Positions 14,870-23,617 of a stretch of 64,000 bases of DNA are shown here, piece after piece (positions within the stretch are counted from its first letter, which is position 1; every line of letters starts with the position of its first letter). The stretch lies in the sequence record MN850577.1. One strand, given 5' to 3'. The notes beneath the pieces were generated by a model, which searched no databases, was not told where the DNA came from, and saw nothing but the letters and a program-made list of their open reading frames with translations. Made by a program: the position numbers and the translations under genes. The DNA comes from Escherichia phage heid.

Positions 14870-15055
14870 AATACTTTCCTCTCAGTTTACTGTTAAATTA
14901 CTTATTAAACATTTTACCAGAACCACCACACATAGGGCAACATCCTGCCCTTATGTACCCCTCTCCATTACAGTAGTCACATTTTTTGTGCTCTGCAAAG
15001 TACTTGCAAAGGAGGTAGACAAATACTGCTACACAACCAAGTGACAGTAAAATTT

Positions 15056-15391
15056 CTATCCAATATGCTTGCATGACTCACCTCTCATATTCTTGTAAAG
15101 GATAAAGCTTCTGTCATGGACGATACTTGTAGACACTGCAAAGTTACTTTCAAGCATCTGTTTGTTTGGATTGTAGAAGCTTTCTTTAAACTCGTCAAGT
15201 GCAAATTGGTGATTATCTGGAAGACCTTTTACACAGACCTTTATTGTAATTGCTGCTGCGACCTTGCCAGTCAGTTCTTCTTTAGCTGCTACTAAAATTT
15301 TGTTAAGAAACTTATGGCCATCTTCAGGCTTCTTGATGTTCTCCCAACGTTCTTCTAAGACAATGTTGATGTTCATCTCTTTGATTTTCAT
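15056..15391 (-). CDS. Hypothetical protein (111 aa)
   Basis: ORF. Confidence 0.4.
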   Translation of the reverse strand: MKIKEMNINIVLEERWENIKKPEDGHKFLNKILVAAKEELTGKVAAAITIKVCVKGLPDNHQFALDEFKESFYNPNKQMLESNFAVSTSIVHDRSFILYKNMRGESCKHIG

Positions 15392-15406
15392 AGTTTTCTC
15401 CAGAAA

Positions 15407-15430
15407 TTAAAAAGGCTCCCGTAGGAGCCT
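15407..15430 (-). terminator. Intrinsic terminator after the NAMPT-like gene
   Basis: AGGCTCC-CGTA-GGAGCCT hairpin followed on the minus strand by a U-run. Confidence 0.6.
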
Positions 15431-15444
15431 CTTATCATATACTT

Positions 15445-17226
15445 TTAAAGCTGCTTGTCAATATTATTTCGAATATCACCAAGAGTTGTGTAACCAAACT
15501 GCTCAGAGTCACTAAAGACTAAACGTAAAGCACAAGCTGGGTGGTCAAGTACATCTGCAAAACTCTGGAATCCATAGCCATCTACAGCTTTCAGCTTACC
15601 ACCATCCCACATAGGTGCTACACCACCAAAGGCAGATTTCTTAACACCACTATCTGTTTTAGGGTCTTTTGCAAGCATAATCTCTTTACCACCAATGCTT
15701 GCAAGAGTTGCTTTGACAGCAAATGCAAAGGTGTCACGAGTCATGTACTGGTAAGTGTAAGAACCTACGCCAAACACTACGTTAGAGCTTGCAAAACCCA
15801 TTTCATACAGACGCTTCAGGATTTCGTTTGCACGTTCCAGCGTGATAGAGTCACCATAGATAAGTCCGATATGCTCATCCAGTACCTTAAACCCTTTAGA
15901 GTTAATAGTTCCCCCAAAGATGTTGTACAGTGTCTTAATAGCTCCATCAATCTCAGCTACAGGACGTGTTACAACGTTTGCAGAACCAACCATATAAGCG
16001 TTTTTCAACAGCACTGTATCAGCAACTTCAAAGTCTTCTCTGTCAACAACCATTTCGTAGCCTTCTGACAGTAGCCATCCAGCAATACCATAATTGATGT
16101 TTTCAAGCTTCATGTTCAGAACAGCATTCAACATTGTGTCACTGGCTTCAAGCTTGCTTAAGTGTTCGTAATAAGCCTTTTTAGCACACTCTAAGTGGAT
16201 TGCTTTATAACCTGTGACAATATGTACAGGGTCTCCAGAGTCAGGACGAATTACCAGTTTACCGTCACGTCCCATAATCTCTTTGCGAAGTGCTGGTAAG
16301 ATTTCTGACACAGTTCTCCAGAAGTTATAAGTGTCTGAAACAACACTTGCAATACCAGTTGGGTAAGTTTCTGTTAAGAAACGACGGAAGGTTTGTAACT
16401 CACCTTTAAAGCGTCTTTCTTCTTCAATCAACTCATTACCACCTTCCCAAGCAATGTTTGCACACATTACAGAGTGCTCAGTGGCTGGTACAGAGCTACC
16501 AATATCAGAGATTGGGTAGGACTGTCCATAGATTCGTTTAGCCGTATACACAGCAGGGAAGCTATCAGTTCCTTTAAAGCTGGTTAAGTGGCCTACAGCG
16601 TTAAATGCGTCATCAGTAAAGCCGGACATACCACGCATAGCAAAGTCATGGCACTGATAAGGCAAATGCAAGTCGTTGTCACAAGTAAGGTCAGCCCACT
16701 TCTTACAGATACGTTTGTAGTGCAATGCAATAGTTGCAATGGTACAAGCCTTCCAAATCTCAGCAGAGAAAGCATCTTCCAGATAACCTGCTACCCAATG
16801 GAAACCTGAAACAGTGTTCTGGAAAACAATCATTGGGACACGCATAGGGACAACTGTACCTTCTTCTACAGCGTATACTTCAACTGGTAGATAACCTAAG
16901 TCGTGAAGTGCTTCCCAATGCTCTCGACTGATAGCATCTTTACCCAGAACACCATTCATGACTTCTAAGATTTCATCAATGGCTTCTTTTTTATCACGTT
17001 CAAAGAAAGTGGCGTTCCAGTGGTCTATCAAGTAATCTTTAACGAAACGTTGAATACCAAAAGCTACTACACCATCAATTGCTAAGGGGCTGTTAAACCA
17101 TTTGTCACTACGTGGTGTCAGGTTGAACATCAAGTACTCTGTTGCACTAGGGTACTGGTAAACATGACCAGATTTGTAAGCATCTGCGTTTAAACCTGCT
17201 GGTACTGCATAAAGTGATTTAGTCAT
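15445..17226 (-). CDS. Nicotinamide phosphoribosyltransferase-like protein (NAMPT/NadV family; candidate Namat of an NAD+ reconstitution pathway)
   Basis: 593-aa ORF with overall NAMPT-like features; adjacent to a PRPP-synthetase-like gene. Confidence 0.6.
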   Translation of the reverse strand: MTKSLYAVPAGLNADAYKSGHVYQYPSATEYLMFNLTPRSDKWFNSPLAIDGVVAFGIQRFVKDYLIDHWNATFFERDKKEAIDEILEVMNGVLGKDAISREHWEALHDLGYLPVEVYAVEEGTVVPMRVPMIVFQNTVSGFHWVAGYLEDAFSAEIWKACTIATIALHYKRICKKWADLTCDNDLHLPYQCHDFAMRGMSGFTDDAFNAVGHLTSFKGTDSFPAVYTAKRIYGQSYPISDIGSSVPATEHSVMCANIAWEGGNELIEEERRFKGELQTFRRFLTETYPTGIASVVSDTYNFWRTVSEILPALRKEIMGRDGKLVIRPDSGDPVHIVTGYKAIHLECAKKAYYEHLSKLEASDTMLNAVLNMKLENINYGIAGWLLSEGYEMVVDREDFEVADTVLLKNAYMVGSANVVTRPVAEIDGAIKTLYNIFGGTINSKGFKVLDEHIGLIYGDSITLERANEILKRLYEMGFASSNVVFGVGSYTYQYMTRDTFAFAVKATLASIGGKEIMLAKDPKTDSGVKKSAFGGVAPMWDGGKLKAVDGYGFQSFADVLDHPACALRLVFSDSEQFGYTTLGDIRNNIDKQL

Positions 17227-17271
17227 CTTTTAATCTCTCTCAAAATGGGGCTTTTAAGCCCCTATAAACTT

Positions 17272-18168
17272 TCAATCAAGGTTTGCTACAGTAACTTGAC
17301 TGTAATGTGTTAAGCCACGGTCTTTAGCTTCGCCTAAAGAGTTTGTAGTGTAAATATGGTCGATACCATTGTCAAGAAGGTTTTCAACATCTTTAGAGAA
17401 GATACCATGTGTTACATAAAGTTCCACACGTTTTGCACCTGCTTCACGAAGATGCTTCGCTGCTTCTATGAAGGTTCGACCACCATCACAGATATCATCC
17501 AGAATCATGACGGTTTTATCTGTCAAATCAACATCATCAAGGATTCGCATACCAGTAATTTCACCAGTCTTAAGGTTACGCACTTTAGACATTGTGATGT
17601 ATGGTTTATCCACCTCTTTAGCAGTCTCTGCAATCTTCTTAGCAGCACCTGCATCTGGGGCTACTAAGTAATCAATCAGTGGGTCATTTGCATAGTGGAC
17701 TGCAATTTCCTTTTGAGGAATACTCTGGAAGCAGTTAAACAGGTTATCTGGTACATAGCTGTGAGGGTCAACTGCACAGACTGCATCAAAACCCATTGCA
17801 TTAACCTGTTGTGCAAACACTTTCAAAGCTGCTGCATCACCTTTAAACATGTGACGGTCGTAACGTGCATTTGGCAAATAGTAAAAGATAGCAGTCTTCA
17901 TAGCAAACTTATGAGGTACTAAATCATCAATTGCTTCTTTAGCAAGTGCCACAGCAAACAATGTGTCCTTATCATAACCTTTTACAATCATAATCACATT
18001 GTTGATAGATGATGCTGCATAAGCAGTAAAATCAACAAACTCTGGCGAAAAGTGTCCACCAATCTCACCAGAAGGGAATTGGACGATGTTAAACTCTTCT
18101 TCATGAGTCCCTTTAGTTGGTGAATGAACTGTAACACGGATAGATGTTTTCATAGTTTTCTCTCTCAA
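17272..18168 (-). CDS. Ribose-phosphate pyrophosphokinase-like protein (PRPP synthetase family; candidate ADP-ribose pyrophosphate synthetase)
   Basis: Motifs VDPHS and MILDDICDGGRT (PRPP-binding loop variant). Confidence 0.6.
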   Translation of the reverse strand: MREKTMKTSIRVTVHSPTKGTHEEEFNIVQFPSGEIGGHFSPEFVDFTAYAASSINNVIMIVKGYDKDTLFAVALAKEAIDDLVPHKFAMKTAIFYYLPNARYDRHMFKGDAAALKVFAQQVNAMGFDAVCAVDPHSYVPDNLFNCFQSIPQKEIAVHYANDPLIDYLVAPDAGAAKKIAETAKEVDKPYITMSKVRNLKTGEITGMRILDDVDLTDKTVMILDDICDGGRTFIEAAKHLREAGAKRVELYVTHGIFSKDVENLLDNGIDHIYTTNSLGEAKDRGLTHYSQVTVANLD

Positions 18169-18443
18169 TCAAAAGTTACGTTTGTTACTGCCATTGCAGA
18201 TTTGCATTTTGCAGGGTCTACAACGTGATAAAGTACACTACAGTTACCTGTGCTGTCTGGTACAGGCTTTACCCATTGCTGCTTTATAGTTGGCTCTCCT
18301 AAGTCTTTGTAAGAGCCATCTGTAAAGTTGTTTACCATCTCAAGTGCAATTGGTTCTGGAACATGACCACGTATCATGTACATCTCACAACCATTACCAC
18401 CTTCACTGACTAATGGTAAAATCTCCCACTTCTCTTTAGCCAT
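18165..18443 (-). CDS. Hypothetical protein (92 aa), co-operonic with the NAD salvage pair
   Basis: ORF whose stop overlaps the start of the downstream gene. Confidence 0.4.
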   Translation of the reverse strand: MAKEKWEILPLVSEGGNGCEMYMIRGHVPEPIALEMVNNFTDGSYKDLGEPTIKQQWVKPVPDSTGNCSVLYHVVDPAKCKSAMAVTNVTFD

Positions 18444-18951
18444 TATAAGTTGCCCTATAAACTGTCTCGAACTTCAACAGGAGAGATATTGCCAAATCTG
18501 TATAGTTGTTGTCAAGCACATCTGGCATATTGTTTTTGATATATTTCTCTTGCTCTTCATAGGTCATCTTAGGTGTACTTAGGAGGCTATCTCCTTGCTT
18601 CTGGTTATCAGCTTTAGTTTGGATAAACCAGTTTGCACAGTGATGTTCACCACCTTTTGTAACAGGTTTGTGGTGACCTAATGTAAATGTTTGCTTACCC
18701 GTATACCTGCAAAGATTGTTCAGTGTTGCAATGGTGTTCTTCACAACACACCATTCATACAGGTTATCTATTGTGTAGTGTGGGTAATAACGGACAAGTG
18801 CTCTTTCACGGAAGTTATCACGATTCCAAAGAACCATGTGATTAGAATTTGAAGGGTCATATTTGTGGGAGTCTATAAACTCTTGACGCTCATCAAAGCT
18901 GAGTCTTAGAACTGACATTGCAACCGAACGTTTCAGGTTTGACAGATACAT
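18436..18951 (-). CDS. HNH-like endonuclease (171 aa), tentative
   Basis: Partial HNH pattern GHHKPVTKGGEHHCANW (HH..P...GG....N). Confidence 0.3.
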   Translation of the reverse strand: MYLSNLKRSVAMSVLRLSFDERQEFIDSHKYDPSNSNHMVLWNRDNFRERALVRYYPHYTIDNLYEWCVVKNTIATLNNLCRYTGKQTFTLGHHKPVTKGGEHHCANWFIQTKADNQKQGDSLLSTPKMTYEEQEKYIKNNMPDVLDNNYTDLAISLLLKFETVYRATYNG

Positions 18952-19002
18952 TTTACCTCCAAAATAAAAAGGGAACCTTTACAGTCCCCTTATAGTATCT
19001 GT

Positions 19003-19323
19003 TTACTGAGCTACTTTCAAGATGCTTGTGAATGAAATCTCACTCTCATCCATAAACTCTTTTGCTTCTCCAGTAACTTTCACAAAGTTATCTAGGCAGA
19101 TAATCTTCTTATCTTTCTTGCTGTAGGTTAGCTTAACCTTTTCAATATCTTTCTTAGAGCTTTTCTCTTCATTAAAGAGTTTTACAGCTTCTTTGAATGG
19201 GAGGTATGAGCCATCATCATCGCTAATAAAACCTGTACCACAATAGTAGAAGTTGTATTCTTTAGCCATAAACTGGCACAGTACGAAAATCTGTAATTTA
19301 CGAGTGTTATAAACTTTGCTCAT
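19003..19323 (-). CDS. Hypothetical protein (106 aa)
   Basis: ORF. Confidence 0.4.
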   Translation of the reverse strand: MSKVYNTRKLQIFVLCQFMAKEYNFYYCGTGFISDDDGSYLPFKEAVKLFNEEKSSKKDIEKVKLTYSKKDKKIICLDNFVKVTGEAKEFMDESEISFTSILKVAQ

Positions 19324-21472: not shown

Positions 21473-23617
21473 TTACATAGAAACCCTATCCTTAATTTCT
21501 GCCATCTTAGCGTCATTCATTCGAGACTGACCTTTAATTTTTGTGAATGACAAGTACCCGCACACCCTGTTAATCACAGAGATATCATGTGAATGGCAAA
21601 CCTCACATTCTTCAACATCAGCCTTTGGTCTGTTACCACAATGTTCACAGATTGCTAAGTCAAAGTTAAGCCCCTGATAGAAACCTTTCAACATCCCTCT
21701 TGTAATACAACTTTTAAGTGCTGTTAAGTTTTCTGGGTTAGCTACCCTTACATACTGGATTCTACCACCTCTACAGATATGGAAGAATGGCTCTTCTAAG
21801 TCCTGCTTCTCAAATGGTGAGATGTCTGCTGCAACATTCATATGGAAACTGTTTGTAAAGTATTCCTTGTCAGAGACACCTTTAATAACGCCAAACATAT
21901 CTCTGAACTGTTTTAACTGAGTTCCACAAAGTGATTCTGCTGGAGTGCCATATACCGCATACAAGAAGCCATCTTCGTTCTTAAACTCTTCAGTTTTCAT
22001 GTTAATGTATGCCAGAACATCATATGCAAAACTACAGCTTCCAACTTCATGGAGTCGTTTACCTTCAGCAAGAACAGATAGCTCATCAAGCGCAGTAACC
22101 CCAAAAGAAGCTGTGAAGGACTTCACGATATCCCAGCCAACCTTGTCAGTAGGTTTCTTATTCCCTTTGTACAGACCACCCTGTGTGAATGCAAGAGGGT
22201 TAGAGCTTGCTGGCATGTTAGCAATCATTTCGTAGCGTTTCTTGTGGAAGCTGCGAATCATCTCTAGGTACTTATCAAGCTCTTTCCAGAAATCTAAACC
22301 ATTCTCTTTAGAATACTGGTAAATCATTGGCAAGTTCAAAGATACAGCACCAATGTTAGCACGACCAACATAGAACTCTTCTCCATTCTCGTTAAGATAT
22401 GGAGATAAGAAAGCTCTGCAACCCATCGGTGAAATCACCTTACCAGAACGCTTAAAAGCATCTGCTACAGCACCATGACCAGATACACTTAAGAAATCTG
22501 GATACATCGCTTTAGAGCAACACTCAATAGCTTTTTCAAACAACCTTGCTTGGCATACATCAAGTTTATGTCTTGTCTCTTCATAGATATACACAAGTTT
22601 AGGAAACACAACAGGTTTTTTGCTTTTTCCTTGCCCGTTCATCCTTACATTAAGGATTGTATTGGCAATCATAAACTGAAGACGGTTATCTTCATTGTGC
22701 ATATCTGGTTCCAACAGGCCAAATGTCAGAGTAGTAAATGCAAAATCACCGCGACTGCAAGGAACAGTGTTAAGTTTCATTTCAAGAGATTGGAAACCTT
22801 GTGTTAACTCATTCTGTAATTGCTCCATTACGTAATTATAGTGTTGCTCTTTAGGTATTCCGTACTCTTCAGCTTTCTCTGAGTGGTACACTAAAGATTT
22901 TTTAGCATACGGTACAAGTACCTTATCAATCTCTGCTAAAGTAAAGCCACCAAATTGCTGTGCAGTTGCTGAAAGAACTACATCGCCAATAACCTGTAAG
23001 GCTGACAGCACAGACTTTGGTTCACAGTATTCGATACCAGACATTTCAAAGCCACCTTTCAGTACTTTACCGATGTCAAACAGGCAACAGTTGATACCAC
23101 CAAAAATTAGGTCTCTTAAATCATGGATGTAGATAAACCCTTTTTCAATGGCTTCAAGTTCCTCTGGTGTTAAATGGTACTGTTTAAAGATTTCTTTAGT
23201 CAAGTAACCACGAATAATTGAGCCTTTTGTAGAAATTAAACTGCTGTCAAAGTTAGCATTTTCACGGTCACCTAAGAAGAGTGTATCTCTAGTCTTTTGG
23301 TAAAGCTCATCCCAATTTTGAGCAACCTCTTTACGGTAATTTCTATATGTTGAGTAAGACTCATAAATCTCGTGATTGACTTCTGCCAAAGCACCCTCAA
23401 CAATACTGTGAATATCATTTACCGAAATTAGCAAATTATTCTGCTTAGTGGACTTTACCAGAATCCTCATAAATGCTGACTCAAGAGCTTGAGTAACATC
23501 TGGTGGAAGCTCTTTATAACCAACTCTGTTAGCTGACTTTGTGACTGCTGCTAAAACTTTTTTGATATCAGGTTCTTCAAGTGAGCCATTCTTTTTAATA
23601 ATCTGTACTTTGTTCAT
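21473..23617 (-). CDS. nrdD: Anaerobic ribonucleoside-triphosphate reductase, class III
   Basis: C-terminal glycyl-radical motif RVCGYL and Cys-rich zinc site CEHCGN...CEVCH; size 714 aa. Confidence 0.8.
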   Translation of the reverse strand: MNKVQIIKKNGSLEEPDIKKVLAAVTKSANRVGYKELPPDVTQALESAFMRILVKSTKQNNLLISVNDIHSIVEGALAEVNHEIYESYSTYRNYRKEVAQNWDELYQKTRDTLFLGDRENANFDSSLISTKGSIIRGYLTKEIFKQYHLTPEELEAIEKGFIYIHDLRDLIFGGINCCLFDIGKVLKGGFEMSGIEYCEPKSVLSALQVIGDVVLSATAQQFGGFTLAEIDKVLVPYAKKSLVYHSEKAEEYGIPKEQHYNYVMEQLQNELTQGFQSLEMKLNTVPCSRGDFAFTTLTFGLLEPDMHNEDNRLQFMIANTILNVRMNGQGKSKKPVVFPKLVYIYEETRHKLDVCQARLFEKAIECCSKAMYPDFLSVSGHGAVADAFKRSGKVISPMGCRAFLSPYLNENGEEFYVGRANIGAVSLNLPMIYQYSKENGLDFWKELDKYLEMIRSFHKKRYEMIANMPASSNPLAFTQGGLYKGNKKPTDKVGWDIVKSFTASFGVTALDELSVLAEGKRLHEVGSCSFAYDVLAYINMKTEEFKNEDGFLYAVYGTPAESLCGTQLKQFRDMFGVIKGVSDKEYFTNSFHMNVAADISPFEKQDLEEPFFHICRGGRIQYVRVANPENLTALKSCITRGMLKGFYQGLNFDLAICEHCGNRPKADVEECEVCHSHDISVINRVCGYLSFTKIKGQSRMNDAKMAEIKDRVSM

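Follow-up and report, generated by a model that had tools for sequence, protein, structure and literature searches.

A predicted NARP1 (Adps-Namat) NAD+ reconstitution operon in the Felixounavirus Escherichia phage heid

Introduction

The NARP1 pathway was found by deleting genes 79-80 of the BASEL phage Bas63 (JohannRWettstein; MZ501086), a Felixounavirus (Osterman et al., 'Phages reconstitute NAD+ to counter bacterial immunity', 10.1101/2024.02.11.579819). In that work, plaquing of Bas63 Δ79-80 was ~20-fold lower on SIR2-HerA hosts, ADPR-PP was confined to infections of defended cells by wild-type phage, and the host genes pncC and nadR were dispensable for the rescue (10.1101/2024.02.11.579819). 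The pathway further defeated type I Thoeris, DSR1, DSR2 and SEFIR, whereas type II Thoeris withstood it (10.1101/2024.02.11.579819). The Bas63 evidence is genetic and metabolomic. Bas63 Adps failed to purify, and the biochemistry comes from homologues of SpβL1 and ICP1: purified SpβL1 Adps converted ADPR and ATP to ADPR-PP, with no product detected in the canonical-Prs control, and SpβL1 Namat joined ADPR-PP to nicotinamide to give NAD+, favouring ADPR-PP over PRPP (10.1101/2024.02.11.579819).

Structures are described for both enzymes. The residues named in ICP1 Adps are Phe18, Arg87, Phe92, His121, Asp161, Lys185, Asp212/213/216 and the PP loop Cys215-Ser220, which binds the ATP donor phosphates, and the α11-α12 module of PRPS is lost (PMC13586617). 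SpβL1 Namat combines a Nampt-like core with a Namat-only selectivity clamp, formed by the SCH motif GSXΦXΦXΦTRD, in which X is aromatic, and a stacking residue on the SCL; Nampt has no equivalent of the aromatic motif, and in Bas63-type proteins the SCL carries a Lys and then the stacking residue (PMC12774641).

In the proposed mechanism, a SIR2-, TIR- or SEFIR-based host NADase defence (SIR2-HerA, type I Thoeris, DSR1/2) would cleave NAD+ to ADP-ribose and nicotinamide, Adps would form ADPR-PP by moving the β,γ-pyrophosphate from ATP to the terminal ribose of the ADP-ribose, and Namat would swap the pyrophosphate of ADPR-PP for nicotinamide, yielding NAD+ directly and allowing phage replication to continue. 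NARP1 is a major phage counter-defence, through which phages survive many immune systems that kill by draining NAD+. An earlier note on Escherichia phage heid (MN850577.1), made from the letters of a 64,000-nucleotide stretch (hereafter the window), read an adjacent pair of Prs-like and NAMPT-like genes as a candidate module of this kind, and here we compare that pair with the described systems.

Gene order and transcription unit

The region is 96-98% identical at the nucleotide level to many Felixounavirus genomes, and by its sequence the window is that of a Felixounavirus, a Felix O1-like coliphage. The matched genomes belong to Felix O1-like myoviruses whose hosts are E. coli, Salmonella and Shigella. 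Four minus-strand frames lie head to tail within 15410-19020 (ORF171, ORF92, adps and namat), with the following features:

18969..19020, minus strand: upstream terminator (18991-18969) and abutting promoter-like site (19020-18992), from reading the sequence and scanning for consensus; the transcription unit probably starts here
18436..18951, minus strand: ORF171 (phrog_3500), weakly HNH-like, first gene past the upstream terminator
18165..18443, minus strand: ORF92 (phrog_4726), directly upstream of adps, counterpart of bas63_0078
17272..18153, minus strand: adps, Prs-like, 293 aa from ATG (the mechanical ORF opens at TTG 18168 and encodes 298 aa)
17247..17262, minus strand: hairpin in the adps-namat spacer, GGGGCT-TAAA-AGCCCC then ATTTTG, read from the sequence
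15445..17226, minus strand: namat, NAMPT-like, 593 aa
15946..16209, minus strand: lineage-specific insertion domain of Namat, residues 340-427
15410..15433, minus strand: closing intrinsic terminator, AAGAGGCTCC-TACG-GGAGCCTTTT then TTAATTT, 10 pairs

As the earlier note had described, a Prs-family gene sits directly upstream of the gene for a 593-aa NAMPT-family protein and the pair ends at a strong terminator; the ORFs, their Pfam and PHROG matches, and a 10-bp stem with a T tail at 15433-15410, 12 nt past the Namat stop, all bear this out. Both genes lie on the minus strand in the same orientation, separated by a 45-nt spacer, in a Felixounavirus setting. A pattern scan placed a promoter-like site directly ahead of each of two terminators. 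Since ORF171, ORF92, adps and namat are bracketed by terminators, these sequence patterns make them look like one transcription unit, and to this extent the placing of the two upstream ORFs in the same operon stands.

A Shine-Dalgarno-like TGAGAGAGA box precedes ATG 18153 and recurs before the Namat ATG. Because both enzyme genes share it, the box favours ATG 18153, and Adps likely starts there, as a 293-aa protein annotated in the same way in Bas63, rather than at TTG 18168. The spacer hairpin, with its 6-bp GC stem, could act as a partial attenuator or as a processing or stability element, and the cited papers do not describe it. The PHROG search placed rIIA just downstream of the operon, and a scan of the window for tRNAs and Rfam families found none.

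The Prs-like protein carries the residues of Adps

Pfam (Pribosyltran/Pribosyl_synth) and PHROG (phrog_619, E 3e-98) both assign the Prs-like protein to its broad family, and the 298-aa ORF contains the VDPHS and DDICDGGRT motifs first pointed out from the sequence, here as AVDPHS and LDDICDGGRTF. It is 80% identical to the Bas63 protein, 32% to ICP1 Adps, 30% to SpβL1 Adps and 24% to E. coli Prs. When aligned with these four proteins and human PRPS1, its residues F26, R97, H131, D167 and K190 correspond to ICP1 F18, R87, H121, D161 and K185, its D219, D220 and D223 to D212, D213 and D216, and its PP loop C222-T227 to C215-S220; the catalytic β-hairpin lysine, K190, is K162 in SpβL1. The sole tested Adps residue to be replaced is the ICP1 adenine contact Phe92, which is Met102 here and likewise Met in Bas63.

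Comparison with canonical Prs points the same way. Among NCBIfam models the protein passes only the broad TIGR01251 subfamily, scoring 127 bits where E. coli Prs reaches 423, and it falls below the cut-off of every Prs equivalog model. Its C-terminus stops before α11-α12, leaving it without that Prs module, and its loop reads DGGRT rather than a TGGT-type sequence, all of which sets it apart from canonical Prs. A PDB sequence search returned canonical Prs entries only, with none named Adps among the matches. On its sequence identities and equivalog scores, we assign the protein to the phage Adps clade.

The DGGRT loop had been taken in the earlier note as a hint of altered substrate specificity. 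We rejected it as an Adps signature: active Adps enzymes carry DGAAS (ICP1) or SFGGT (SpβL1, close to the canonical TGGT), so the PP loop varies among active enzymes and DGGRT is not diagnostic.

Two N-terminal alleles of Adps

The adps gene is under purifying selection (dN/dS ~0.1), and its first half differs from that of Bas63. Precisely where adps begins, nucleotide identity drops from 100% to 62%, to be regained by ~17570, so that the first ~165 codons are 62-84% identical, whereas the flanks are 95-100% identical; at the amino-acid level, codons 1-165 are 69% identical. Within this stretch dS is saturated at 2.4 and dN/dS is 0.10, which rules out diversifying selection on the divergent half and indicates that the Adps N-terminal domain is an old allele exchanged by recombination, neither decaying nor rapidly adapting. 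The allele found in the window is the commoner of the two in the database, and the cited NARP1, Adps and Namat papers contain no discussion of the swap.

The NAMPT-like protein carries the Namat clamp

The second protein matches NAPRTase/NAMPT_N in Pfam and phrog_448 among PHROGs (E 4e-201). In a PDB sequence search SpβL1 Namat ranked first (9w5w/9w5x, E 6e-128), with HdNadV and human NAMPT behind it, and an AlphaFold2 model (pLDDT 93.8) has 9w5x as its best fold match, with a TM score of 0.95 on the target.

Core positions were checked at Phe189, Arg192, Asp215, His245, Arg306 and Asp308 in SpβL1 numbering. The Nampt-like core is present as F195, R198, D221, H251, R327 and D329, in which H251 is the catalytic His and R327 is SpβL1 R306, and D15, Y17, A248, G458 and D459 are also kept. 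The SCH motif reads GSYTYQYMTRD at residues 488-498, and the third SCL residue is Lys42, followed by Trp43, which is the Bas63-type arrangement.

A lineage-specific insertion domain in Namat

Namat exceeds the SpβL1 and ICP1 proteins by ~100 residues in length, and the surplus consists of a loop of ~15 residues (258-273) and an insertion of 88 residues (340-427) between the RPDSGDP strand and the next helix. Whether modelled by itself or within the whole protein, the insertion was confidently predicted to form a small α/β domain, and no recognisable structural relative was found. By sequence it occurs in Ounavirinae-type phages only (253 records). Compared with homologues of the Shigella phage Silverhawkium and phiSUSP1 type, the insertion is 43-50% identical and the core 82-86%, a rate of evolution about double that of the core. 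Inserts of different kinds, from 0 to ~75 extra residues, occupy this site across the family, and the Namat structure paper makes no mention of the insertion (PMC12774641). Possible roles for the domain would be docking of Adps for substrate channelling, regulation of Namat, or evasion of a host inhibitor. We give only an outside chance to the idea that the insertion is a functional add-on rather than neutral decoration, or that the co-transcribed ORF92 or ORF171 extends NARP1 against a non-canonical NADase.

Proposed function and alternative readings

We read the locus, with high confidence, as an intact NARP1 (Adps and Namat) counter-defence operon of a Felixounavirus. This level of confidence follows from complete conservation of the catalytic residues together with strong purifying selection: of the catalytic and substrate-contact positions tested against the structures of ICP1 Adps and SpβL1 Namat, all are retained bar three conservative contact substitutions. 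The suggestion that the pair serves NAD+ reconstitution is likewise supported, the operon being an orthologue of the founding Bas63 operon with the defining residues and motifs of Adps and Namat. The enzyme activities and anti-defence phenotype of the window phage are predicted from this orthology; the chemistry would carry over from SpβL1 and ICP1 homologues that are 30-48% identical, and the counter-defence phenotype from the sister phage Bas63, whose Adps is a somewhat different allele.

Plain nucleotide and NAD salvage would have the Prs-like enzyme make PRPP from ribose-5-phosphate and a NadV make NMN, which host NadR/PncC would turn into NAD+. Pfam, PHROG, NCBIfam and GenBank do label the genes ribose-phosphate pyrophosphokinase and nicotinamide/nicotinate phosphoribosyltransferase, and in vitro, if no ADPR-PP is supplied, SpβL1 Namat can still turn PRPP into NMN (10.1101/2024.02.11.579819; PMC12774641). 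However, a ΔpncC ΔnadR host background did not keep Bas63 from overcoming defence, the canonical-Prs control for SpβL1 Adps gave no detected product, and Namat offered both substrates used ADPR-PP only (10.1101/2024.02.11.579819). With the window Adps under all Prs equivalog cut-offs and lacking the C-terminal regulatory helices, and with the adenine clamp motif, absent from Nampt, present in the window Namat, we regard salvage as highly improbable. A NARP2-type pathway, in which NMN made by a NAMPT-like enzyme is completed to NAD+ by a phage NMN adenylyltransferase, as in Vibrio phage KVP40, draws on the same protein family, and the canonical NadV HdNadV ranks third among the PDB matches of Namat. 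Yet the Nampts of NARP2 make up a clade of their own, in phages without Adps (10.1101/2024.02.11.579819), whereas here Adps adjoins a protein with the Namat signature motif and the Bas63 annotation shows no Nmnat across the syntenic 40 kb, making this the reading to which we attach the least credence.

The NARP1 operon could also be larger than two genes, with ORF171 and/or ORF92 feeding or protecting the pathway as the Macro-domain phosphatase Adpp (NARP1-AP) or RyDEP do. The overlapping or tightly spaced frames between two terminators, and the accessory genes known in other NARP1 operons, speak for such a four-gene module, and the earlier note had allowed that the two ORFs, one of them HNH-like, might be cargo or accessory. 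The accessory role found no support. The HNH likeness of ORF171 is weak (phrog_2214, E 1.8e-6), with no match in a Pfam search, and its homologues in phAPEC8 and Klebsiella phage KP13-26 (Stephanstirmvirinae) adjoin a UvrD/Rep helicase rather than NARP1; ORF171 is therefore not NARP1-specific, and we rejected an accessory role for it. ORF92 has no Pfam or NCBIfam match and is found in Ounavirinae only, and since it is confined to one phage lineage its linkage to adps-namat carries no independent weight; we found no evidence supporting an accessory role for this gene either. Neither ORF carries a Macro, RyR or other Pfam domain. More broadly, no Macro or RyR (PF02026) domain of the NARP1-AP/RyDEP kind was found in four flanking ORFs on both sides (a set that leaves out the 58-aa ORF at 14898-15074), among which the sole Pfam match was DUF7390 in ORF106. 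Deleting genes 79-80 alone, moreover, sufficed for the Bas63 phenotype (10.1101/2024.02.11.579819). Taken together, these observations make a four-gene module very unlikely.

The two-gene NARP1 assignment would correct the database labels 'ribose-phosphate pyrophosphokinase' and 'nicotinamide phosphoribosyltransferase', and it predicts a phage able to withstand SIR2-HerA, type I Thoeris, DSR and SEFIR, though not aRES.

Comparison with known systems

Canonical Prs (E. coli Prs, human PRPS1) has the same fold as the window Adps and shares its core His131, DD219-220 and Lys190, but at 24% identity the window protein lacks the α11-α12 regulatory/filament module and has a remodelled PP loop. Similarly, Nampt and NadV enzymes (human NAMPT, HdNadV, KVP40 NadV) share the fold and the core His251, Arg327 and Asp329 of the window Namat, whereas the Namat-only aromatic clamp motif is present in the window protein and has no reported equivalent in Nampt.

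The NARP1 enzymes of SpβL1 (9W5W/9W5X) and ICP1 (PMC13586617) are closer relatives. Their identity to the window proteins is 30-32% for Adps and 47-48% for Namat, the catalytic and ligand residues align, and the same two-step chemistry would be expected. SpβL1 Namat matches the window fold at TM 0.95, with GS-Y-T-Y-Q-Y-x-TRD aligned; the window protein differs by the extra 88-residue domain and ~15-residue loop, and by Lys42 and Trp43 on the SCL instead of Arg40. Where the window has DGGRT as its PP loop, ICP1 has DGAAS and SpβL1 has SFGGT.

The closest system is that of Bas63, from the same genus, with the same gene order and spacing: 0077 (171 aa), 0078 (92 aa), 0079, 0080 and, further along, rIIA, as in the window. 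Its Namat, gp80, is identical at 584/593 positions (98%), both proteins being 593 aa long, and its Adps, gp79, at 233/293 (80%), without gaps, both being 293 aa. The PP loop, the catalytic Lys, the SCH/SCL clamp and the Namat insertion are identical in the two phages, whereas a further small gene, 0081, follows namat in Bas63 and is absent from the window, and the first ~165 adps codons are divergent. As the operon is nearly the same as the one in which NARP1 was discovered, it is not new: NARP1 is already known, and the window operon is effectively its type example. Recognising it here adds nothing to the published Bas63 work; two minor features stand beside it, the pair of Adps N-terminal alleles among Felixounaviruses and the insertion domain of Namat.

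Sequence features of the adps-namat operon

Nucleotide comparison with Bas63, a sister Felixounavirus, revealed a sharp mosaic boundary in the operon, with identity dropping from 100% to 62% precisely at the start of adps before rising again downstream. Across the first ~165 codons of adps, dS between the two phages was saturated and dN/dS was 0.10, a combination indicating that the Adps N-terminal domain exists as two old alleles circulating among Felixounaviruses through recombination. This segment and the candidate regulatory sites are as follows:

~17670-18169, first ~165 codons of adps: mosaic segment
15410-15461, minus strand: good sigma-70-like promoter (TTGACA-16-TATGAT) and terminator
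18969-19020, minus strand: good sigma-70-like promoter (TTGAAA-17-TACTAT) and terminator
17247-17262, within the 45-nt adps-namat spacer: short GC hairpin of sequence GGGGCT-TAAA-AGCCCC, then ATTTTG, with a T-rich tail reaching 17241

At both unit ends (15410-15461 and 18969-19020), the sigma-70-like promoter stops 0-1 nt short of the terminator stem. RNAs from these predicted promoters would start within the stem and would escape the adjoining terminator. The spacer hairpin may act as an attenuator of read-through or make the RNA more stable.

Comparison with related loci

In Stephanstirmvirinae, homologues of ORF171, the weakly HNH-like first gene of the unit, have a UvrD/Rep-type helicase directly downstream (phAPEC8, L009 3968-6084; Klebsiella phage KP13-26, L010 3986-6346). 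KP13-26 also carries nadR and pnuC ~2 kb further upstream (L010 1-1973), an NAD-related gene set of another kind. The annotated ICP1_2011_B Namat (L002 4781-6100) has ~55 fewer N-terminal residues than the other Namats, and the missing stretch contains the Asp/Tyr nicotinamide contacts as well as the selectivity-clamp loop (SCL); its start codon is probably annotated too far downstream.

Gene content also differs from Bas63, which has an additional 345-nt gene, bas63_0081, after namat (L006 20509-20853) that the window lacks (~15392-15444). Likewise, whereas Bas63 nrdD is split by an insertion with a homing endonuclease gene (L006 12828-13570), this insertion is missing from the window, where nrdD is a single uninterrupted 714-aa ORF (21473-23617).
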